This document shows positions 551 through 22,864 of a stretch of DNA of 64,000 nt, piece by piece. This DNA comes from a virus: IMG/VR virus record IMGVR_UViG_3300020215_000050, positions 21,495-85,494 of that record. One strand, given 5' to 3'. Under the pieces are notes generated by a model. It was not told the DNA's origin. It was given only the letters and a program-made list of their open reading frames with translations, and made no database searches. Position 1 is the first letter of the stretch. Each line of letters begins with the position of its first letter. The translations under genes were made by a program, and so were the position numbers.

Positions 551-1207
551 CTATTCCTTGACGGGGGCTGCCGCGGCGATCCAGTACGTCACGGCGGGGT
601 TGACGAACCTGACGAGACCCTCTGAGACCTGCAGGCGGTAGTCCTTTGCTAACACCAGCAGGTTGTCTTTGTCAAGGAACGTTTCAAATTCCTTGTCGGT
701 CTCGCCCACGTAGATCTTGTAGTGGTCCTTCGCCCGATTCTTGCGGTCGACGGCCCTCAGGACGACGTGTCCGCCGGCGCCGTTGATCGCGAGGTGCTGG
801 AGGCCGAGGACGTTCATCGCCTTCACGGCCTTGTCGAGGTCGGCCCACTGGAGGTCGAACTCGACGACGACGGGCGGACCCGCGGGCGGATTCTCGGGGG
901 GCACCGCGATGAGCGACTCCTCGCCGAGGGTGTACTCGATGGTCTGCCGGCCGTCCGTGATCGTCAGGTGGTTCTCGCCCACCTCGAGCTCAGGGTCGAC
1001 GCCCTTAAAGAGACTCAGCGCCCCCAGGAACTTCCCCAGCTCCGCTATCGCCGCCCTCGCCGGGAACTCCTCCGAGATCCGGGCCCACGCCGCTATGGTC
1101 TTGTTCGGCGTCATCGTGGCCAGCGTCTGCCCCGGGCGTATCAGCACCGACGGCTGGATCGAGTTGAAGTTCTTGAGTACTTCCACCGTTTCCTGACTTA
1201 TCTTCAT
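551..1207 (-). CDS. gp45: DNA polymerase sliding clamp, T4 gp45-like
   Basis: MKISQETVEVLKNFNSIQPS...FLGALSLF...DY.L.VS..LVRF...YWIA; 218 aa, typical T4-like clamp. Confidence 0.88.
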   Translation of the reverse strand: MKISQETVEVLKNFNSIQPSVLIRPGQTLATMTPNKTIAAWARISEEFPARAAIAELGKFLGALSLFKGVDPELEVGENHLTITDGRQTIEYTLGEESLIAVPPENPPAGPPVVVEFDLQWADLDKAVKAMNVLGLQHLAINGAGGHVVLRAVDRKNRAKDHYKIYVGETDKEFETFLDKDNLLVLAKDYRLQVSEGLVRFVNPAVTYWIAAAAPVKE

Positions 1208-2111
1208 CCTTCACTTCCTTCATTGTGACCTGTGGGACGACCGCCCGCACCTGCTGGGGTCGCTTGAGAACTCCGGGGTCCGCCGTCGCCGACGCCCCGA
1301 TCGAGGCGAGGGCCGCGAGGGACCCGCCGAAGATGTAGCTGCCGACGTGCTGGAGCTTCATCCAGGGGGCGAGCCACACCTTGTTCCGGGCCTTCATCTT
1401 CCGCACGTTCTGGCAGAACATGTAGTCCTCGGAGAGGTAGCGGCGGGACTTGGGCTCGATGATGCAGTCGAAGTACGCCATGATCTGGCGGGAGCCGTCG
1501 AATGCCTCGGTACGGACATGGTCGGGACGATACAGCTGCTCGGGGTAGTGGCGCTCGTACTCCTCGAACGTCGTCCGCTTGACCATCATGAAGCCCGTGC
1601 CGATCTCGAGCACCTCCGCGGGCTCCGAGATCTGGATCGTCCGGGGGGCTCCCGGCTCGACGACGGGGTTGAACACGTAGTCGCCGACGAACTCGTCGAG
1701 CCTGTTGGGGTCCTCGTCGGCCACGCCCTTGTTGACGGCGGCCCGGATCTTCTCCCAGCTGATGCACTTCTTCGGGTACGGGGCGCCGATGACGTCGTAG
1801 GGGGATTCCTCCGAGCACATGGCAAGGAGGGCGATCACGTCGTTGGCGTCGAAGCCGATGTCGGAGTCGATGAACATGAGGTGGGTGTAGCCGCTCCTGA
1901 GGAACTCGTCTGCGCAGTAGTTCCTTGCCCTTGTAATCAGGCTTTCATTAAAAAGGAAATAACTTTTGAACTCGATTCCATATTTTACGCAGAGGGCCGT
2001 CAGATCCGCTATGGACCTGGTGTACATGCCGGCGCACTGCCCCCCGTACATTGGGGTGGCCACGAAGAGCTTCCTCTTCCGCAGGTCCTCGATAGCTACC
2101 TTCAATTCCAT
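1005..2111 (-). CDS. GT-A-fold glycosyltransferase-like protein (conserved T4-like FVATPMYGG family)
   Basis: LFVATPMYGG, ESLITRARN, HLMFIDSDIGF (DxD), LSEDYMFC, HVGSY. The last ~67 codons overlap gp45. Confidence 0.65.
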   Translation of the reverse strand: MELKVAIEDLRKRKLFVATPMYGGQCAGMYTRSIADLTALCVKYGIEFKSYFLFNESLITRARNYCADEFLRSGYTHLMFIDSDIGFDANDVIALLAMCSEESPYDVIGAPYPKKCISWEKIRAAVNKGVADEDPNRLDEFVGDYVFNPVVEPGAPRTIQISEPAEVLEIGTGFMMVKRTTFEEYERHYPEQLYRPDHVRTEAFDGSRQIMAYFDCIIEPKSRRYLSEDYMFCQNVRKMKARNKVWLAPWMKLQHVGSYIFGGSLAALASIGASATADPGVLKRPQQVRAVVPQVTMKEVKDEDKSGNGGSTQELQLDPAVGADTPGADAGHDDAEQDHSGVGPDLGGVPGEGGDSGAGEVPGGAESL

Positions 2112-2117
2112 CCGGAA

Positions 2118-2474
2118 CTACTCCTTTTGTGTACTTTTCTTCTCCCGCTCCCACGCGTCCATCCGGGCTACGTAGTTGGCGAGTTTTTCTATCATCAAAA
2201 CAGCGAGCCGTGGCGTCAGGGTGAAGTGCCGCTCCGTCTTGTCCGTGTCGACGAAGCAGGCCTCCATGCCGATGGACCCGTCGTCGTTGTGCTTGTCCTT
2301 GAGGTAGAGGATGGCGGGCGTCCTCGACGCCTGCAGGGCCTGCCTGTACTTCTCGATCGCATGGTCGAGGGTCGCCATGGGCATGGTCGTACCGAAGCCG
2401 CAGGACCGGCACCAGCCGGGCGTGTCGCTCCTGTACGGGGCCTTGCAGTTGGGACAGTCGTCTCGTGGGATCAT
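2118..2474 (-). CDS. Hypothetical protein with N-terminal Zn ribbon
   Basis: CPNC...CRSC; start MIPRDD chosen at 2474 within track ORF 2118..2570. Confidence 0.5.
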   Translation of the reverse strand: MIPRDDCPNCKAPYRSDTPGWCRSCGFGTTMPMATLDHAIEKYRQALQASRTPAILYLKDKHNDDGSIGMEACFVDTDKTERHFTLTPRLAVLMIEKLANYVARMDAWEREKKSTQKE

Positions 2475-2476
2475 GC

Positions 2477-3682
2477 TCACAGGAACGCCTCCAGGGTCTG
2501 CTTGGGCTGGTAGTTCTCCACCCGGTGCTCCCGGCTGGGGTTGTACTGGTAGACCGTGCCCGACACCCACTCGAGGGAATCCGGCCTCTCGAGGGCCTGC
2601 TTGATCGCGTCCGCCATGTCCCTCGCCGTGTGGACGGGGACGTTCTGGCAGATGTGGTTGACGCTCCTCTCGGGGTTGAGCAGCTCGAAGTTGTCGGGGA
2701 GCCCCATGATCGACATGGCCTCCCGGTAGGTGATGTAGCGGTCCTCCCTGGGATGCGCCAGCATGTGGGGGTAGTGGCCGACGAAGGCGCCGATGTAGTC
2801 CTTGGCGAGGATCGTGTCCCGCTTCATGATCGAGCCGCCCGCCTTGAGCTTCTCATGGATCTCTCGGCACTTCTTGGCGACCTTGTGCTCGCCCCTCGCG
2901 TCCATCCAGTCCGCCACCCGCTCGTAGCTGTGGCCGGCCATCTCGATCAGCGACTTGGAGTCGTTCCCGCGGATGGGCATGTGCTCGAGGATGTCCGTCA
3001 TGTACTTGCGGTGGTCGACCCCCTGGTGGACCTCCTCGAGCAGGTAGCGGTAGAAGGGCTCGTCGGACGGCTTCTTCTTGTTGATCGGCTCCTGCTGGAA
3101 GTTCGACTTGACGCCGAGGATCAGCTCCTCGATGCGAGGATAGGGCTTATTGTAGTACGGGAGCACGGGGGCCATGTCGCCCTTCCACATGAAGTAGAAG
3201 GAGCGGTTCCTCACCTGAGGGAGCCCGTGGAGAAGCGTCTTCGTCTTGTAGTACGAGACGGTGTAGCCGTGCTTGGCGGCGATGGACTCGAGTCTCTCCC
3301 TCACCTTGTCCCCCATGCCGGACATCAGGTTGGGCGCGTTCTCGCCCCAGTAGACCCTCGGCTGGGCGTGCTCGAGCACCCACTCGGCCGCGGAGTACAG
3401 CCAGTCGTTGACCTTGGAGTCCCCGGAGGCCGTAAGGCTCAACATAGAAAGCCCCGCACAAGGACAAACGCTCGACACGACGTCGACCTTGGCGTCGGCC
3501 GGGAAGCCTCCCTGGTCGATGAGGTGATAGGGCACCTCGTTCTCCCAGTGGTTGAGCAGGTGGCTGTCGTTCGCGACGAACGGGGAGTACGACACGATGT
3601 ACTTGGGACGGCAGCCGAACGCCTGCTCGGAGGCGATGGCCTCGCCGCCGATGAGGGGGATGATTGTCGCGTGGTCGATCAA
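2477..3682 (-). CDS. C5-cytosine DNA methyltransferase-like protein with degenerate motif I
   Basis: Motif IV VCPCAGLS, motif VI WGENAP, motif VIII LPQVRNR, motif X CQNVP; motif I reads IPLIGG. TTG start at 3682 overlaps the upstream TGA. Confidence 0.75.
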   Translation of the reverse strand: MIDHATIIPLIGGEAIASEQAFGCRPKYIVSYSPFVANDSHLLNHWENEVPYHLIDQGGFPADAKVDVVSSVCPCAGLSMLSLTASGDSKVNDWLYSAAEWVLEHAQPRVYWGENAPNLMSGMGDKVRERLESIAAKHGYTVSYYKTKTLLHGLPQVRNRSFYFMWKGDMAPVLPYYNKPYPRIEELILGVKSNFQQEPINKKKPSDEPFYRYLLEEVHQGVDHRKYMTDILEHMPIRGNDSKSLIEMAGHSYERVADWMDARGEHKVAKKCREIHEKLKAGGSIMKRDTILAKDYIGAFVGHYPHMLAHPREDRYITYREAMSIMGLPDNFELLNPERSVNHICQNVPVHTARDMADAIKQALERPDSLEWVSGTVYQYNPSREHRVENYQPKQTLEAFL

Positions 3683-4278
3683 AGCGTGACCCTTTCGATG
3701 ACGAGGGGTTCGAGCCTGTAGCGCTCTACCGTTACGAAGTTCTTGTCCAGCAGGGCGGCGCATCGGGTCGAGAAGATGAAGCCGTCGGCCATGTGGTCGG
3801 CCGGGTTCGTCGGCAGCTTGAAGAGCGTGAACGCCTCCTCGTTGACCCTGAAGCGGACGTACCCCTTGATCCTGTCGACGGGCACGGGGCCCTTGTGGGC
3901 GAACGAGCCGACCCGGTCCGCGCTCCACGCCCAGTCCCTGCACATGCCCGCCTGGATCCGGCAGTAGCGCTGGATGACGGGGAACGGCCTGTCCTTGTAG
4001 ACGGCGGTGAACAGGATCGCGTCCTCGTCGGCGCAGAAGTTGGCCTCGTCGGGCTCCGTGTCGAACACCACGCCCTCGCAGTACGGGACCCTGCCCCAGT
4101 CGCGGTGGGCGACGACGCAGGCGAAGGCGGGGGCGTAGCAGTAGGAGAAGTAGACCCGGTCGGGCGAGGACGTCATCACGCCCTGCCAGTTGTCGAAGCC
4201 TCCGGCCATGCGGCGGGTCAGAAGACCGCGCTTGAGGATGGAATCGAGCCGTGCAGCGGATGTGCCGTGGAGGATCAT
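3679..4278 (-). CDS. ADP-ribosyltransferase/Tpt1-like fold protein
   Basis: LHGTS...ILKRGL...RVYFS...A...GPVPVDRI pattern of HGT-type NAD+-using enzymes. Confidence 0.5.
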   Translation of the reverse strand: MILHGTSAARLDSILKRGLLTRRMAGGFDNWQGVMTSSPDRVYFSYCYAPAFACVVAHRDWGRVPYCEGVVFDTEPDEANFCADEDAILFTAVYKDRPFPVIQRYCRIQAGMCRDWAWSADRVGSFAHKGPVPVDRIKGYVRFRVNEEAFTLFKLPTNPADHMADGFIFSTRCAALLDKNFVTVERYRLEPLVIERVTL

Positions 4279-4300
4279 GACGAACCAATGGTGAACTGAG

Positions 4301-5365
4301 TTATTTATTCAGGTAGCGGAGGGCCGTCTGCATGCCCATGTTGATCGCCTGGTCCATGTCGATGTAGACGAAGCTGCCGCAGCGGCCTATCGGCTCGACG
4401 TTGGGGTGCTTCTCCGCGAGCCTCTTCGCGTACCGGTCGTACAGGTCCAGGCTCCGCTCGTCCCTCACGGGGTAGTAGCGCTCGTAGTCGTTCTCCATGA
4501 AGTCGCACGGGTGCTCCTCCGTGAGCTTCGAGTAGCACGGGTGCGGGTCGTAGTTCCCGGGGAAGTGCTTCCACTCCGTCCTGCGGGTGAAGTACCGCCC
4601 GTCCGTGTAGTTGATGGTCGCCACGGGCTGGTAGGTCTCGTGGGGCTCGGTCCTCGCGATCGAGTGGAAGAACTTGAGCGAGCGGTACGGCAGCCAGCCC
4701 TCGTCGCACTCGAAGATCTCGTCCAGCGAGCCCGAGTAGAAGACCCGGTCGTAGTCGTCGAAGTAGTCGGGGTCCACCTTCACGCCGGTGCTGTACCGGA
4801 TCCTCTCGTGACAGAGGAGCTCGCGGACGAAGTCCGTGTAGCCGTCCATGGGCATCGCCTGCCACGGGTCGTTGGGGAAGTACAGGTCGTTGTCGTCCTC
4901 GCGGATGGGGACCCGATTGAGGACGCCCGGGGAGACCTCCTCGAGCGGCCTGCCCCACATGAGCTGGGTGTACGGCCGGTAGAAGACGTCGACGAGCTTC
5001 TCGCGGGGGACGGACTCGAGGGTCCGCTTGTTGGGCGGGAACGGGACGAGGGTGCCCTCCCACAGCCGGGCCTTCACCCGGTGCTGGTAGCCCATCCAGA
5101 CGACGAAGCGGGAGACGAACTCCCACACCCGCTGGTTCTTGGTGTGGAAGATGTGGGGGCCGTAGCGGTGGACCCGGATGCCGTACTCGTCGAGCTCGTC
5201 GTAGGCGTTTCCCGCCACGTGGTTCCTCTGCTCGAGGACCTGGACGTCGACCCCGCCCTCGGCCAGCAGCCGGGCGATCGTGGCCCCGCACAAGCCGGCG
5301 CCGACCACGAGCACGAGATTCCGGGATTGCCTACCCGGAATGGGCTGGATGGTGCTGCCGGTCAC
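4301..5365 (-). CDS. glf: UDP-galactopyranose mutase
   Basis: VGAGLCG FAD motif, GNAYD, HRYGPHIFHT, RYYP, GRCGSFVYIDMDQAI. GTG start at 5365 overlaps the TGA of the upstream gene. Confidence 0.92.
   Translation of the reverse strand: MTGSTIQPIPGRQSRNLVLVVGAGLCGATIARLLAEGGVDVQVLEQRNHVAGNAYDELDEYGIRVHRYGPHIFHTKNQRVWEFVSRFVVWMGYQHRVKARLWEGTLVPFPPNKRTLESVPREKLVDVFYRPYTQLMWGRPLEEVSPGVLNRVPIREDDNDLYFPNDPWQAMPMDGYTDFVRELLCHERIRYSTGVKVDPDYFDDYDRVFYSGSLDEIFECDEGWLPYRSLKFFHSIARTEPHETYQPVATINYTDGRYFTRRTEWKHFPGNYDPHPCYSKLTEEHPCDFMENDYERYYPVRDERSLDLYDRYAKRLAEKHPNVEPIGRCGSFVYIDMDQAINMGMQTALRYLNK
4302..4309 (-). promoter_or_regulatory. T4-type late promoter (AATAAATA)
   Basis: AT-rich octamer upstream of the ART-like gene, overlapping the glf stop. 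Confidence 0.5.
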
Positions 5366-6456
5366 TTGCGGGCATCCAGTATGGCCTGCAGCTCCGCCCT
5401 TTCGGTGGCCTTGTCCAGGGGGTGCTTGGAGTAGAGGCAGTCCCTCTGCTGGCGGGCGAGGGCGACCAGCCCGTCGAGGTCCTTCGACTCGACGTCCCGG
5501 GCCCTGAGCCCGACGTAGGCCTCGCCGTAGACCCTGCCCTCGTCGTCGTCGCAGACGAGGATCGAGCCGGCGTCGGCGACCTGGAGGGGCCTGGCCCGCC
5601 ACCAGCCCGAGCCCCGGTGGAAGTAGCCCGGCATCAGGCAGCCCCACTGCTGGGCGTAGATCTCGCACATCGTGTCCTCGGTCACCCTCTCGGACTGGTT
5701 CTCCCCCCGCCTGCCCCCGTAGATGTTCACGGGCCAGGTCACCCCCTGGCGGTCGAGCCACGAGCGGGTCTTGTTCTGGACGAGGGAGGAGAAGTTCCAC
5801 TCCCTCTTCTTCGCCTCGTTGGAGACGACCGACGAGCCGAACATGTCCACGACGCCCCGTCCGTAGTTGTTGTCGGGCCGGCGGTTGAGGTGGTAGGGGT
5901 TGGGGTTGTAGGTGAAGATCCTGTCCCTGGGCCAGCCCGTCCGGAGCTTGTCGATGTCCCCGCCCGCGAAGGCCGAGATGAGCAGCCGGTTCTGCTTCGA
6001 GCATATCGTGTCGATCGCGTGGACGAAGTCCATCGTGTGCTTGGCGAGGAACTCCTCGGTGTAGTGCTCCTTCTGGATGTCGAGGGTGTATGCCCTGAAC
6101 GCGTACGAGGCGTTGTTGTCCGTGAAGTACGCCCTGAACAGCTTGATGCTCGACATGATCTGGTCCGTCTGCCAGTCGTCGAAGGCGAGGATGCAATCGG
6201 GTCGGGCGTGGACGGCCCAGAAGCCGGCGAACAGGCGCTGGCAGTAGCCCTTGGGTGAGTGGAGGAACACGATGACCTCGTCCCACGCGGAGAGGTCCTC
6301 GCCCACCGTGACGTGGCGGTGCTCCACCTCGAAGCCCATGGCCTCCAGGCAGCGGATCAGCGAGTAGTGGCTGGCGACGACCTGCAGCTCCTGCCTAAGG
6401 TAGTAGTCCTTGGTCGTCTGGTTGGTGTTCATCCCGGTGATCAGGATACGCTTCAT
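5362..6456 (-). CDS. Putative GT-B glycosyltransferase, distantly like T4 beta-glucosyltransferase
   Basis: 364 aa; N-terminal KRILITG strand, LEAMGFEVE, ILAFDDW, C-terminal R.LQVADAGSILVCD; sits between gp42 and glf. Fold inferred from layout and context only. Confidence 0.5.
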   Translation of the reverse strand: MKRILITGMNTNQTTKDYYLRQELQVVASHYSLIRCLEAMGFEVEHRHVTVGEDLSAWDEVIVFLHSPKGYCQRLFAGFWAVHARPDCILAFDDWQTDQIMSSIKLFRAYFTDNNASYAFRAYTLDIQKEHYTEEFLAKHTMDFVHAIDTICSKQNRLLISAFAGGDIDKLRTGWPRDRIFTYNPNPYHLNRRPDNNYGRGVVDMFGSSVVSNEAKKREWNFSSLVQNKTRSWLDRQGVTWPVNIYGGRRGENQSERVTEDTMCEIYAQQWGCLMPGYFHRGSGWWRARPLQVADAGSILVCDDDEGRVYGEAYVGLRARDVESKDLDGLVALARQQRDCLYSKHPLDKATERAELQAILDARK

Positions 6457-6823
6457 TCTCTTCCTCTTGCCATCCGGCGAGATGCTTGCGGAGGTTCCGC
6501 ACAGACTTTTCCTCGAAGGACCGGTCGTTGAACTGCCGGTTGCGAGGGGAGGGGTGCGGCATCCTGAAGTGCTCTATCCCGAGTCGCTTCAAGATGCCGC
6601 TTACTTCTCCACCGAGCGCCACGATCGGCCCGCGATGGAAAGACAACACACCAGCGAGGAAGTCCAAGTCAACTGTCTTTTTGTCGAACTGACCGGGCTG
6701 GTGGGAAACGTTGACGAACGAGTAGTAGTCCGGGAACCAGGCGCTAAGCTTCGGAAACGTAGAGCCCCTCGCCGACGGGCGTTCGAAACCAGTCTGCCGA
6801 GCTGGGTTCATACCGATCACCAA
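6395..6823 (-). CDS. Uracil-DNA glycosylase superfamily protein
   Basis: VIGMNP, IVALG, MPHPSPRN motifs; start uncertain (TTG at 6823). Confidence 0.6.
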   Translation of the reverse strand: MVIGMNPARQTGFERPSARGSTFPKLSAWFPDYYSFVNVSHQPGQFDKKTVDLDFLAGVLSFHRGPIVALGGEVSGILKRLGIEHFRMPHPSPRNRQFNDRSFEEKSVRNLRKHLAGWQEEENEAYPDHRDEHQPDDQGLLP

Positions 6824-7385
6824 GGGTCGAGTAGCAGTCGATGGCGACCCCCGTCTTCTTGAAGATCTCGCAGGCGAGCCTGAACTCATGGACCCACTTC
6901 TCCTTGAACCTTGCCGCCGTCGGGGCCGCCATGACGACCCTCGCGATCCCCGCCTGGGCGATGCCCAGCGCGCACTGGGAGCAGACCATCATGCCCTCGA
7001 CGTATATCGTCGCCCCCTTCAAGCATATCCCCTCCCGGCAGGCGTTGTAAATGCAGTTCTTCTCGGCGTGGACGACGTAGCTGTACTTCACGTCCCTGTC
7101 GTCGTAGTGGGCCGGGTCGTCGTCGAAGCCGCGGGGGAAGCCGTTCCAGCCCTGGACGATCAGCCTGTTCTCGGCGACGCAGACCGCGCCCACTCGCGTG
7201 CTCGGGTCCTTCGACCACGTCGCGATGAGGCGGGCGACGGAGAGCCAGCGGCTGTCCCACGTCAGCTTGTCGTCGGCCTCGTCGTCCTGCTCCGCCGCGT
7301 CGCTCCAGCTGAGCAGGTCCTTGGTCACCGTCGCGCCCTTGGGCAGCTTGTACGGGTTCCTGACCGTCCAGGGGTCGTGAGACAT
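6744..7385 (-). CDS. cd: dCMP deaminase
   Basis: SKDPSTRVGA, GWNGFPRG, VHAEKNCI, VCSQCA (HAE plus CxxC); start MSHDPW at 7385. Confidence 0.9.
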   Translation of the reverse strand: MSHDPWTVRNPYKLPKGATVTKDLLSWSDAAEQDDEADDKLTWDSRWLSVARLIATWSKDPSTRVGAVCVAENRLIVQGWNGFPRGFDDDPAHYDDRDVKYSYVVHAEKNCIYNACREGICLKGATIYVEGMMVCSQCALGIAQAGIARVVMAAPTAARFKEKWVHEFRLACEIFKKTGVAIDCYSTLGDRYEPSSADWFRTPVGEGLYVSEA

Positions 7386-7639
7386 CAGAACGTGCCCAGG
7401 TAGTATGGACCGAGGGTGCCGTCTTCCTTCCGCTCCTCGCAGTAGACCTGGAACACCCGGTACTCCTTCGGCGACTTCTCTCCGATCGCGAGGTCGAGGA
7501 GCTTCTTCGCCCCGTCGGCCGCGGCCCTCATGTCCTTCTTGCAGGACTCGAGGTCGGAATAGACGACGGTCTCGAAGTCGGACTCGACCTCCCACGCGCC
7601 GTTGATCGTCAGTATCGCGATGATGATAAGCTTAACCAT
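7385..7639 (-). CDS. Small protein with signal-peptide-like N-terminus
   Basis: MVKLIIIAILTINGAW; coupled to both flanking genes. Confidence 0.5.
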   Translation of the reverse strand: MVKLIIIAILTINGAWEVESDFETVVYSDLESCKKDMRAAADGAKKLLDLAIGEKSPKEYRVFQVYCEERKEDGTLGPYYLGTF

Positions 7640-8381
7640 CCTTCTTCCTCCACCAGGCCCACGGGCTGTCGGACCTGAGCTCGTCGTATTGGTCTCTCGT
7701 GCAGCTGAACTTGCCCGTCTCGACGAAGTAGTCCAGCAGGTAGAACTGACGCTCGTAGAAGTGGAGCGAGCCCACCGTCCACCACAGCTCGCCGGGCTCT
7801 ATGCCCAGGTCCATCGCGAGCCTCTGGTGGATGTGGTGCTGCCAGTGGTAGTCGTTCCTGTAGCCGGCCCAGGCGTCGTTGGACCTCATGCACACGTGGG
7901 CCATCAGCTGGCCGTCCCTTATGAAGTACTGGACGGTGTTCGTGCAGACGAAGTCCTGCATCCCGCCCCGCCTCTGGTCGACGTGCATGGTCGGCCGGGT
8001 GTAGATCATGACCGCCCGCCGGGACGTCGGGTCCCTCACGAGCTCCTTGAGCACGTTGTGGTACTGGTTGCCGTTGCCCGGGCTGAAGACGAGATAGCCG
8101 TAGTTCGAGTTGATGAAGCCCTCGGGCGTGGCCACGCGCTTCCAGATCTCGGGGGGATCGGGCATGTCGTTGACGTTGAGCGACTCCGAGTAGTACCAGT
8201 CCTGCTCCTTCTTCAGGTAGGCCTGGTTGGGCTCGCCCAGGATGTAGGGGAAGTCCGCCTCGAAGCTCGCGGCGATGATCTCGCAGGTCCTGTTCGGCGC
8301 CTTCCCCAGGAATTTTCCCGATGAAAAAAGGTTGCCGAACCGCTTCCGGACCTGGTAGACGTTTGGGTGTCCCGGGTTCAT
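7632..8381 (-). CDS. gp42: dCMP hydroxymethylase, T4 gp42 orthologue
   Basis: Colinear with T4 gp42 motifs: EIIAASFEAD, INSNYG, SRRAVMIYTRP, DFVCTNTVQY, MRSND, YRNDY (Asp gives dCMP specificity), VGSLHFY. ATG at 8381. Confidence 0.93.
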   Translation of the reverse strand: MNPGHPNVYQVRKRFGNLFSSGKFLGKAPNRTCEIIAASFEADFPYILGEPNQAYLKKEQDWYYSESLNVNDMPDPPEIWKRVATPEGFINSNYGYLVFSPGNGNQYHNVLKELVRDPTSRRAVMIYTRPTMHVDQRRGGMQDFVCTNTVQYFIRDGQLMAHVCMRSNDAWAGYRNDYHWQHHIHQRLAMDLGIEPGELWWTVGSLHFYERQFYLLDYFVETGKFSCTRDQYDELRSDSPWAWWRKKDG

Positions 8382-8815
8382 TGGTCGCCCGCCACGCCCG
8401 GATCGATGTTCTGGATGCCGACGCCGATGACGTATGAGCCCATCCCGTTGTCGATGGTGTTCAGCATCGGCGTCGGGCGGTTGAACATGTCGCGGGCCGG
8501 CAGCTGGCCGTCCATCTGCTTCCTGAGGTACGAGACGGCGAACGAGGCGTAGTTGATGATGTCCTTGAACGTGTCCTCGAGCGGCTCGTGGTTCGGCCCT
8601 ACTCCCGGGGCGACCCTCGCCGTCTCGATGAGGGACCGGGCCCTCAGCATCTTCTGGTGGAGCATGTCGTAGATCGTGTCGATGCCGCGGAGGTAGTGGT
8701 CCGCCTGCTTGACCGTGCTCGCCGGGTTCTGGTAGTCCCTGCTCTTGGAGTTCTGGAGCTCGATGCACTCCTCGAGCACCTTTACAGACGCCCGCTTGTT
8801 CTCAATCGTCATCAT
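8378..8815 (-). CDS. Nucleotide-modification-associated domain 1 (DUF1599/Nmad1-like)
   Basis: K..DY, K..R and DTFKDIINYASF pattern; coupled (ATGA) to gp42. Confidence 0.6.
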   Translation of the reverse strand: MMTIENKRASVKVLEECIELQNSKSRDYQNPASTVKQADHYLRGIDTIYDMLHQKMLRARSLIETARVAPGVGPNHEPLEDTFKDIINYASFAVSYLRKQMDGQLPARDMFNRPTPMLNTIDNGMGSYVIGVGIQNIDPGVAGDQ

Positions 8816-9428
8816 CCTCTGACCTCGCATCCGCGTTCAGGAGGCGGCTGACCCGCTTGGCCCCCTCGGTGTGGTGGTTGAACCAGGGCTTGCCGCCCTT
8901 GTGGAGGGACGCCTGTATGTGGCCGTCCATGTAGCGGCCCCACACGATGATCCTCGGGTAGACGTCCCAGCCCTCGTCCGTTTCGTATATGTTCGCGCCG
9001 AGAATGATGTCAATCTTTCCCTTGCGGATTCTTCGAAGTTTTTTCTGAAGATTCAGCTCGCCGATCGAGAGGTACTCGGTCTTGAAGACGATGCAGTCGA
9101 TCTTGTAGCCCCGCCACAGGATGTCCCAGCCGGGATCAGCCGTCTCGCGGAAGACGTACCGCACGCCGAGGGCCTTGGCCACGGCGGGCTCGATCAGGAT
9201 GTACTGGACGTTGCGCTTGATCTTGTAGGGGGACCGGCCGTTCGCTCGGAATGGGTCGTCGGTGATGTGCTGAATCTGCCTCTCGAGCCAGCCCTCGGGG
9301 ACCTCGTTCCTGAGGAGCGTGATCTTCAGCGGCAGGGCCGCCTTGAGGTTGTCGAGGACTCGGGCTACGTTGGTGCTGGAGTGCTTCTCCAGATCCAACT
9401 CTATGTTCACGGCGACGTTCATGACCAC
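8802..9428 (-). CDS. Hypothetical protein, weak PD-(D/E)xK nuclease-like pattern
   Basis: 208 aa; GWDILWRGYKIDCIVFK; first gene of the modification operon. Confidence 0.4.
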   Translation of the reverse strand: MVMNVAVNIELDLEKHSSTNVARVLDNLKAALPLKITLLRNEVPEGWLERQIQHITDDPFRANGRSPYKIKRNVQYILIEPAVAKALGVRYVFRETADPGWDILWRGYKIDCIVFKTEYLSIGELNLQKKLRRIRKGKIDIILGANIYETDEGWDVYPRIIVWGRYMDGHIQASLHKGGKPWFNHHTEGAKRVSRLLNADARSEDDDD

Positions 9429-21380: not shown

Positions 21381-21595
21381 CGGACATCTGGGTCTGCAGG
21401 CTCTTTGAGTTCGGGGCCACGCACTACAAGACCCTGGTGCGACCGATCCTGTTCCGCTTCCCTCCCGAGGCGGCGGGGAAGATTACGTTCTGGTCGCTGG
21501 AGGTCTGGAACCGGTCTCTGCAGAGACTCGAGGACTTGATCGAAGAGGCGGTGGCCAGGGACGAGACGAAGGTGCCCGACGACGGGCTCTGCTAG
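21344..21595 (+). CDS. Hypothetical protein
   Basis: ORF track. Confidence 0.4.
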   Translation: MAMRRTGRLQLIADIWVCRLFEFGATHYKTLVRPILFRFPPEAAGKITFWSLEVWNRSLQRLEDLIEEAVARDETKVPDDGLC

Positions 21596-22443: not shown

Positions 22444-22864
22444 CTTCCTCTCCCACGAACAGAGCCTTGGGAAGCGTCCCGAGGTTGTCCTTGTGCTGCG
22501 GACCCTCCCAGCCGACCGGCTTGATCAGGTCCGGCAATCCCAGCGGGTTCGGTCTTGACGCCTTTACCCCCGGTTCCTTGCTCATGTTCGCCCTGTGGAC
22601 CCTGTCCCAGGCCCTCTGCCCGTCCACGCCGAAGAGGTCGAGGGTGCCGATCGCGACGACGCACAGGTCGATCAGGGAGTCGACGACCCCGTCCGGATCC
22701 TGAAGCGACATCGCCGCACCCATCTCTCTCAACTCCTCGTCCAGGAATGCCTTCCTGAACCTAAGCATGGCCTCGAGCTTGCTGGCGTCGAAGTCTTTGA
22801 CCCGGCCATGGAACCCGTAGTGGGCGTGCATGGCGCGGATGTCCTTTACCCAGTCGCGACTCAT
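22400..22864 (-). CDS. MazG/PRA-PH-like nucleoside-triphosphate pyrophosphohydrolase
   Basis: FLDEELRE...VDSLIDL...AWDRVHRANMSK...DLIKP.GW. Confidence 0.8.
   Translation of the reverse strand: MSRDWVKDIRAMHAHYGFHGRVKDFDASKLEAMLRFRKAFLDEELREMGAAMSLQDPDGVVDSLIDLCVVAIGTLDLFGVDGQRAWDRVHRANMSKEPGVKASRPNPLGLPDLIKPVGWEGPQHKDNLGTLPKALFVGEEDGPVDQVVGFCDHS

Follow-up and report, generated by a model that had tools for sequence, protein, structure and literature searches.

The window analysed here is a stretch of 64,000 nucleotides (positions 21,495 to 85,494 of IMG/VR virus record IMGVR_UViG_3300020215_000050) from an uncultured, high-GC, T4-like phage, and comes from a viral contig of 123 kb with a completeness estimate of 74%. 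Its subject of interest is a pair of coupled genes, a predicted glycosyltransferase (H) and a UDP-galactopyranose mutase (G, or Glf), that lie in one run with a gp42-type dCMP hydroxymethylase (L). The G+C content of the window is 62–69%, and raw lists of open reading frames (ORFs) are therefore crowded with spurious frames. The gene run was resolved by a frame plot of G+C at third codon positions (GC3) and a listing of start codons. Positions 551–9428 form a single co-directional run of 13 genes, N to B, on the minus strand, with junctions that are mostly overlaps of 1–8 nt or gaps of 2–22 nt. An initial annotation made from the sequence alone had described a tightly overlapped minus-strand run ending at gp45, and the frame plot and start codons bear this out. 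From N to B, the run comprises an unassigned ORF (N), a DUF1599/Nmad1-like gene (M), L, a small ORF (K), a dCMP deaminase gene (J), a short gene resembling uracil-DNA glycosylases (UDGs) (I), H, G, a gene with a putative ADP-ribosyltransferase fold (F), a C5-cytosine methyltransferase-like gene (E), a Zn-ribbon-like gene (D), a GT-A-like gene (C) and gp45 (B). All gene coordinates of the window given below lie on the minus strand. A megablast search with 12 kb of this DNA against the phage collection returned no match.

The enzyme predicted to provide the sugar acceptor is L (7632–8381). It aligns over nearly its whole length (residues 9–232) with T4 dCMP hydroxymethylase (PDB code 1b49; E 3.3e-61), and falls within the thymidylate synthase superfamily (PF00303, E 1.7e-14). 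The motif DFVC(TN) carries the catalytic Cys, which corresponds to C146 of ThyA, together with an Asp in place of L143. The motif MRSND keeps Asp169, and YRNDY has an Asp in place of N177. The segments DFVCTN and YRNDY align with DFMCTN and FRNDY of the T4 enzyme, and the two proteins share the same four positions. An Asp at ThyA N177 leads to dCMP specificity, an acidic residue at L143 goes with a non-methyl product, and RB69-type homologues that make 5-hydroxycytosine (5hoC) are marked by an Asn at E. coli ThyA Asp169 (Lee et al., NAR 2026, PMC13326640). This D169N signature of 5-hydroxy-dCMP synthases is absent from L, which reads MRSND where gp33 of Morganella phage vB_MmoM_Rgz1 (Rgz1) and PDB entry 9iqu read MRSQN. 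Because Asp169 is kept, L is predicted from its active-site residues to make 5-hydroxymethyl-dCMP (5hm-dCMP) and not the RB69-type 5-hydroxy-dCMP. The initial call of a dCMP-specific gp42 was thus right, given the 1b49 match and the N177 to Asp change, and Asp169 sharpens it to an enzyme of the 5-hydroxymethylcytosine (5hmC) type.

The dCMP deaminase reported earlier is confirmed in J (6744–7385) by a match to PF00383 (E 2.1e-18). The Nmad1/DUF1599-like label of M (8378–8830) stands as a lead only, with PF07659 (DUF1599) at E 8.9e-5 and 23.2 bits, below the cut-off of 25, and phrog_1485 at E 1.5e-11. Outside the run, at positions 22586–22762 (contig position G000:C1:44080-44256), lies a MazG/PRA-PH-type pyrophosphohydrolase (PF01503, E 3.3e-10) that, by analogy with gp56 of T4, is a possible dCTPase.

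The mutase G (4301–5365) matches PF03275 (GLF) with an E-value of 1.1e-43 and 149.8 bits, far beyond the cut-off of 26.3, and also matches NAD_binding_8. Searches against structures of UDP-galactopyranose mutases (UGMs) gave E-values of 1e-46 to 1e-56 for 3gf4 (Klebsiella pneumoniae, 1.6e-56), 1wam and 1i8t. The segments VGAGLCGA, GPHIFHT, YTQLMWG, LNRVPIR, TRRTEWKHF, YYPVR, GRCGS and YIDMD all align with 3gf4. They include the GxGxxG motif for binding of flavin adenine dinucleotide (FAD) and substrate-binding Arg, Tyr, Trp and His residues that align with the UGM active site, and which we take to play the roles known from the UGM literature. The identity of G as a UDP-galactopyranose mutase is, by these sequence criteria, well supported. 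A direct reading of the DNA shows GTGA at 5365–5362, where the stop codon of H overlaps the GTG start of G; the coupling of glf to the transferase gene noted at the outset is therefore real.

H (5362–6456) is annotated here as a GT-B glycosyltransferase and predicted DNA 5hmC galactofuranosyltransferase. By sequence it matches phrog_14998, a family of unknown function (E 6.1e-33), and has 655 homologues in metagenomes, many of them on T4-like environmental contigs of 100–190 kb. An AF2 model built with a 39-sequence alignment has a predicted local distance difference test score (pLDDT) of 92.9 and a predicted template modelling score (pTM) of 0.91. With Foldseek, T4 beta-glucosyltransferase (BGT; 1qkj) is the best solved match to this model (E 1.4e-7, template modelling (TM) score 0.55), and T4 alpha-glucosyltransferase (AGT) is also found. 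VIA, an independent alignment of the model against all representative chains (48,161), places T4 BGT 1c3j first (Z 16.5, root mean square deviation 3.6, 290 residues aligned) and T4 AGT 1y6f third (Z 15.8). The GT-B fold of the modelled protein is secure, and the comparison with T4 BGT suggested in the initial annotation is supported by the top rank of BGT in both searches. The affinity of the model to DNA glycosyltransferases in particular is only suggestive. PADLOC contains no match to H, a profile search of PDB sequences with H retrieved no glycosyltransferase, and BFVD gave uncharacterised viral proteins and generic glycosyltransferases, nothing informative. DNA glycosyltransferases of the RB69, DLP3 and RL38JI types are not among the BLAST relatives of H or of its relative in Rgz1, gp40.

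From the fold of H, its gene linkage and its comparative contexts, we consider it probable that H transfers galactofuranose (Galf) from UDP-Galf to 5hmC in DNA. This is the transfer that the initial annotation had proposed for the coupled GT-B protein, and both fold and neighbourhood, each of them computational evidence, speak for it. The acceptor, the donor, the anomeric configuration and the choice of DNA over nucleotides as the level of transfer are all presumptive. In the pathway that we propose, L would turn dCMP into 5hm-dCMP, with J and the MazG-type pyrophosphatase presumably adjusting nucleotide pools in the manner of cd and gp56 of T4. The 5hm-dCMP would be phosphorylated by some kinase, and the resulting hm-dCTP would be incorporated by the phage polymerase. 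Glf would isomerise UDP-galactopyranose, presumably that of the host, to UDP-galactofuranose, and H would move galactofuranose onto the hydroxymethyl group of 5hmC in the DNA. The anticipated product, galactofuranosyl-5hmC, would act as a shield against restriction and other nucleases.

The gene neighbourhood was compared in 80 IMG/VR loci carrying H homologues of 48–57% identity, which were fetched and onto which the proteins of the window were mapped by tblastn. A gp42 gene lies upstream of H in 74 of the 80, and the other six have less than 700 nt of upstream flank; Glf follows H directly in 45. The co-occurrence invoked by the initial annotation thus holds for gp42 in 74 of 80 loci and for Glf in more than half. 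J, M and the MazG/PRA-PH gene belong to the same arrangement, with a J homologue between gp42 and H in 55 loci, an M homologue directly upstream of gp42 in 59, and a member of the MazG/PRA-PH family 2–5 kb upstream of gp42 in 40. In 15 loci, all Glf-positive, a GalE-like epimerase (TIGR01179, E 1.3e-64, the best NCBIfam match) stands directly before H. A freshwater T4-like contig of the UFOVP247 type shows the same gene order as the window: PRA-PH, DUF1599, the thymidylate-synthase homologue, dCMP deaminase, a 117-residue protein, the GalE-like epimerase and H, followed by Glf, the C5-methyltransferase-like gene, DUF3310, the C homologue and gp45. A different arrangement is seen in IMG/VR 3300006803_000027 and 3300025887_000010 (loci L071 and L072), in which gp42 lies about 3 kb upstream of H, Glf comes after H and PRA-PH is downstream; the following 10 kb contain neither E nor C nor gp45.

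Several observations weigh against the transfer of Galf to 5hmC by H. There is no chemical evidence for Galf on 5hmC anywhere. H has no sequence-profile match to T4 BGT (GT63, PF09198), nor to any entry in Pfam (even at E<=5) or NCBIfam, and many unrelated GT-B enzymes reach Z 14–16 in VIA, within about 2 Z of T4 BGT. The score of G against TIGR00031 (E 1.9e-77, 260.8 bits) lies under the equivalog cut-off of 303.75, so that equivalog-level naming is not reached, and G is about 25 residues shorter than bacterial UGM, in the helical domain. Of the loci compared, 35 of 80 (about 44%) have H without Glf, E standing directly after H there, and on two long Glf-less contigs (104 and 125 kb) the GLF domain is found nowhere. 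These loci and contigs imply that H can work without a phage Glf, on host UDP-Galf or another donor. The correlation between Glf and the H clades described below represents a single evolutionary event and is not a statistical correlation. A conserved C5-methyltransferase-like E is unexplained in a phage that is expected to have no unmodified cytosine. On the 123-kb contig of this phage, 74% complete, we found no epimerase and no gp1-type, thymidylate-kinase-type or small P-loop kinase. No TET/JBP gene was found on it either. Because the contig is only 74% complete, the absences of kinase, epimerase and TET are not evidence.

The Glf-less loci lead to the question of the donor. A maximum-likelihood tree built from 56 distinct H proteins unites all 22 Glf-less sequences in one clade (Shimodaira–Hasegawa approximate likelihood ratio test, SH-aLRT, 99) on a long branch that is nested among Glf-linked H proteins, and the outgroups are Glf-linked as well. 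Eleven positions are fixed differently in this clade and cluster at 22–28 and 279–291. As far as can be judged from the sequences, the pattern is consistent with Glf having been lost once, together with a change in H. An enzyme that glycosylates 5hmC in DNA from a pyranose donor (UDP-glucose or UDP-galactopyranose), with Glf rerouting or draining host UDP-galactose or feeding another transferase, would account for a whole H clade that works without phage Glf; the characterised DNA glycosyltransferases of T4 and those linked to TET use UDP-Glc or UDP-GlcNAc, and the best structural match of H is itself a glucosyltransferase. We regard a pyranose donor as unlikely, since the H stop overlaps the Glf start, the two genes are adjacent in at least four unrelated contexts and in both orders, and the GalE-like epimerase occurs only with Glf, on the other side of H. 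Moreover, the loss of Glf coincides with the long, well-supported branch and the fixed substitutions in H, and no other transferase is consistently linked to Glf.

The contexts that support a Galf donor include deposited phage genomes in which the H–Glf pair is adjacent across unrelated surroundings, with either gene first. Aeromonas phage 25, its relatives and Erwinia phage FBB1 have the order Glf–H, with the pair located in the early region and motA and asiA on either side. According to Petrov et al. (2010), genes 42 and 56 are present in Aeromonas phages 25, 31 and 44RR, which have no known glucosyltransferase; for phage 25, the Glf–H pair is a candidate answer to how its hmC DNA is protected. 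In the Actinomycetia phage DSL-LC01 the order is H–Glf, with overlapping genes. There, a 329-residue hypothetical protein (L090:9145-10134) lies directly after H–Glf and before a MazG-like gene; it may be a second transferase. Phage C48C1 (L001:7580-8998 and L001:1108-3413), one of the Kyanoviridae, has a gene for a TET/JBP dioxygenase (PF12851, 3.3e-17) directly upstream of H–Glf, and its genome contains no thymidylate-synthase homologue and no C5-methyltransferase (PF00145). Hydroxymethyl pyrimidines are the products of TET/JBP enzymes in DNA (Burke et al., PNAS 2021, PMC8256090). The substrate of the C48C1 enzyme may be either host-methylated cytosine or, as with JBP, thymine. A few kilobases upstream, C48C1 also carries an isocitrate-lyase-family gene and a 2Fe-2S/4Fe-4S protein, an unusual cargo for a phage.

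More distant relatives of H occur in Gordonia phage Forza, in a Manatee Spring siphovirus and in the Morganella and Providencia Gualtarviruses, all of which have a dCMP-type thymidylate-synthase homologue. In Rgz1, a Morganella phage, the H relative gp40 (L091:4995-6062) lies between genes for an arabinose-5-phosphate isomerase and an NDP-sugar synthase, in an arabinose cluster that is RB69-like, and the thymidylate-synthase homologue of this phage reads MRSQN, the D169N signature of 5hoC. From this cluster it follows that the H family also accompanies a second furanose pathway, that of arabinofuranose (Araf). No sequence match was found between gp40 and the solved glycosyltransferase of phage HY126. 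The Providencia phages PSTRCR_121 and PSTRCR_127 show the same arrangement of an H-family transferase as Rgz1. Gualtarviruses are not among the genera named as arabinosylating (PMC13326640); their first transferase would belong to a family other than that of RB69 gp46:47. Altogether, eight of eight deposited H-carrying phage genomes examined contain either a dCMP-specific, C5-hydroxy(methyl)ating thymidylate-synthase homologue or a TET/JBP gene; five of the eight have Glf and one has Araf genes.

These associations bear directly on whether DNA is the target. Glf normally supplies cell-wall and O-antigen glycans, and H and Glf could in principle glycosylate proteins of the virion or, as seroconverting phages and glycosylating actinophages do, glycans of the host envelope. 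Besides this usual role of Glf, the lack of a DNA-enzyme signature in the sequence of H, together with the similar scores of GT-B enzymes acting on lipids and glycans, would suit a target other than DNA. Such a target is nevertheless very unlikely. H is embedded in a replication and nucleotide block, with gp42 and the dCMP deaminase gene directly upstream of it wherever flank is available, and in C48C1 it lies directly behind the TET/JBP gene. All eight H-carrying genomes encode a cytosine C5-hydroxy(methyl)ating enzyme or TET/JBP, and the T4 DNA glucosyltransferases rank first and third among the 48,161 chains compared with the H model.

Downstream of the pair, E and C are the genes that might take the chemistry further. 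E (2477–3682) was confirmed as C5-methyltransferase-like by PF00145 (E 6.3e-17, 62.4 bits; the Pfam alignment begins at profile position 52) and by motifs IV, VI and VIII. The motifs PLIGG, CPCAGLS, GENAP, QxRxR (QVRNR), RE and QNVP are invariant (100%) across 55 distinct homologues; motif IV is CPCAG, and motif I reads PLIGG(E) instead of the canonical FxGxGG that binds S-adenosylmethionine. E adjoins H or Glf in 76 of the 80 loci, and a similar C5-methyltransferase-like gene lies 4 kb from H–Glf in the unrelated actinophage DSL-LC01.

C (1005–2111) matches phrog_1574 (E 6.5e-60) over residues 1–264 and no Pfam or NCBIfam family. Its Atlas model reaches a TM score of 0.78 to a cluster of PF00535 (Glycos_transf_2), with feature matches to Anp1 and Glycos_transf_2 clusters, and the GT-A assignment is kept as a lead only. 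A homologue of C is present in 62 of the 80 loci. The ORF lacks a stop where its homologues end (about residue 290) and continues for about 75 low-complexity residues (1005 to about 1230), which cover the initial 203 nt of gp45 in another reading frame. At about position 1230 GC3 changes over to the frame of gp45, which it follows in the tail; the extension therefore probably reflects a read-through without function or an indel in the assembly. The closest relatives of C come from Stenotrophomonas phage DLP6 (68%), Caulobacter phage Cr30 (58%), the phiM12 group, cyanophages (Synechococcus) and pelagiphages. The search of the phage collection found no H relative in the DLP6, Cr30, phiM12-type, Synechococcus or Pelagibacter phage groups. 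As relatives of C are common in such groups, C is unlikely to be specific to the pathway, and the earlier suggestion that the GT-A protein extends the sugar was set aside as unsupported.

Modified bases more complex than mono-Galf-5hmC, needing E, C or both, or else a different hydroxymethyl pyrimidine as acceptor, have to be weighed against this background. E stands next to H or Glf in nearly all the loci and recurs near H–Glf in DSL-LC01, it combines invariant catalytic motifs with a non-canonical motif I, C is frequent in the loci, and di- and tri-saccharides are carried by RL38JI, RB69 and DLP3. On the other hand, H–Glf is kept without E and C in Aeromonas phage 25, FBB1 and C48C1; relatives of C are widespread in phage groups where the phage-collection search found no H; and no activity of E on 5hmC is known. 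A more complex base therefore appears improbable, and simple Galf-5hmC is retained as the expected product.

A wider reading of the same material is speculative, and we advance it with considerable doubt: H may be the founder of an unnamed family of DNA furanosyltransferases that places Galf or Araf on whichever C5 oxygen handle is available, be it 5hmC from gp42, the hydroxymethyl bases of TET/JBP enzymes or 5hoC from D169N synthases. Among members from freshwater phages and actinophages, the family would work together with E, an invariant enzyme with a non-canonical cofactor motif, and E would alter the modified cytosine further, to a base beyond a simple glycoside.

The remaining genes of the run complete the picture of the locus. 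The last gene, B (551–1207), is the gp45 sliding clamp anticipated at the end of the run, as confirmed by PF09116 (E 5.8e-9) and by an alignment with cyanophage sliding clamps that starts at residue 1 and shows about 40% identity. At the other end, the 208-residue ORF N (8802–9428) is coding according to GC3, and has no match in Pfam, PHROGs, NCBIfam or PADLOC; a nuclease-like function, proposed for it earlier, found no support in any library searched and was dropped. K (7385–7639), a small ORF of 84 residues with a GC3 frame signal, has no family match in Pfam searches. D (2118–2474; 118 residues) carries an N-terminal CxxC...CxxC motif and has no family match in Pfam or NCBIfam, and the Zn finger ascribed to it persists as a lead read from this Zn-ribbon-like motif. 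None of the 80 related loci has a homologue of F, K, N or D, which are therefore lineage-specific additions.

I (6395–6823) overlaps J by about 80 nt and the start of H by 62 nt (the last ~20 codons of I). Aligned with 22 homologues, it shows the conserved motifs G(I/M)NP (GMNP in this phage) and PHPSxxNR (PHPSPRNR), which recall MUG and SMUG enzymes, on a core of about 115 residues, about half the size of known UDGs. In 36 of the 80 loci a conserved homologue of I lies between the dCMP deaminase gene and H. Its model (pLDDT 84.8) gave weak Foldseek matches (E 0.12–0.5, TM <=0.52), mostly to UNG, D4, SMUG1 and TDG, and the Atlas lead PF03167 is matched in Pfam at an E-value of only 0.16. The label of a mini UDG-superfamily-like protein is suggested by the motifs and the Atlas lead, and given the weak matches it has the standing of a lead. 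F (3679–4278) is an insertion between Glf and E that, compared with the 80 related loci, is specific to this phage. Its resemblance to ADP-ribosyltransferases is likewise a structural lead, seen in Atlas matches to a DarT-domain cluster (TM 0.68), DUF4433 (TM 0.63) and the DarT family (TM 0.51), with no match in Pfam or PADLOC. Judged by these models, this DarT/PARP-like protein could be a DNA ADP-ribosyltransferase directed against host DNA.

If the assignment of H is correct, galactofuranosyl-5hmC would be a new natural DNA base, and phage DNA glycosylation would be widened beyond glucose and arabinose by a furanose hexose attached to the T4 handle. The abundance of H, with its hundreds of metagenomic homologues, implies that the modification could be common in nature. 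It would then affect the outcomes of restriction, CRISPR and type IV defence, and possibly introduce a bias in sequencing libraries, and H and Glf would be candidate tools for labelling 5hmC with a non-mammalian sugar. Since cultured carriers of gp42, Glf and H exist, among them Aeromonas phages 25, Aes508 and phiAS4 and Erwinia phage FBB1, the prediction is directly testable. We found no paper on Galf-5hmC in the literature, and for Glf in combination with hydroxymethylcytosine only PMC13326640 was relevant.

A comparison with the T-even glucosyl-5hmC pathway (gp42, gp56, gp1, Cd, AGT and BGT in T4) reveals a largely shared plan. Both systems have a gp42-type enzyme, identical in its active-site residues, a dCMP deaminase, a pyrophosphatase (here the MazG/PRA-PH-type candidate dCTPase), a GT-B transferase (here nearest to the BGT and AGT structures), and a hydroxymethyl handle that is made, here by prediction, at the nucleotide level before the sugar is added. 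By contrast, H falls outside the BGT and AGT families by sequence, and its coupling to Glf, with the GalE-like epimerase in relatives, predicts a furanose hexose in place of glucopyranose; a gp1 kinase was not found here on the partial contig (74% complete). The cassettes of C5-methyltransferase, TET and glycosyltransferase resemble the present one in that 5hmC is glycosylated by phage enzymes, as predicted here, and in that a C5-methyltransferase-like gene is present. Their characterised transferases glycosylate 5hmC with UDP-Glc or UDP-GlcNAc and reject UDP-Gal (Burke et al., PMC8256090), and they differ in that 5hmC is here expected from gp42 and not from TET.

G shares with the bacterial mutases of K. 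pneumoniae and E. coli (3gf4 and 1i8t) the FAD-binding fold and the aligned active-site Arg, Tyr, Trp and His, but lies in a phage DNA-modification context and not in a cell-wall glycan locus. Furanose sugars do occur on phage DNA, as Araf in RB69 and DLP3, and the Rhizobium phage RL38JI has a base-proximal galactose on 5hoC and a phage Glf, for which UDP-Galf synthesis was proposed (PMC13326640). In all of these phages, as predicted here, a thymidylate-synthase homologue makes the C5 oxygen handle, and RL38JI also has its own Glf. Their transferases are not BLAST relatives of H, and their handle is 5hoC, made by a D169N flavin-dependent enzyme, whereas Asp169 is kept in L and 5hmC is expected. 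The nearest precedent for the system described here is thus the galactose-5hoC of RL38JI, which is likewise accompanied by a phage Glf and is built on a different handle.

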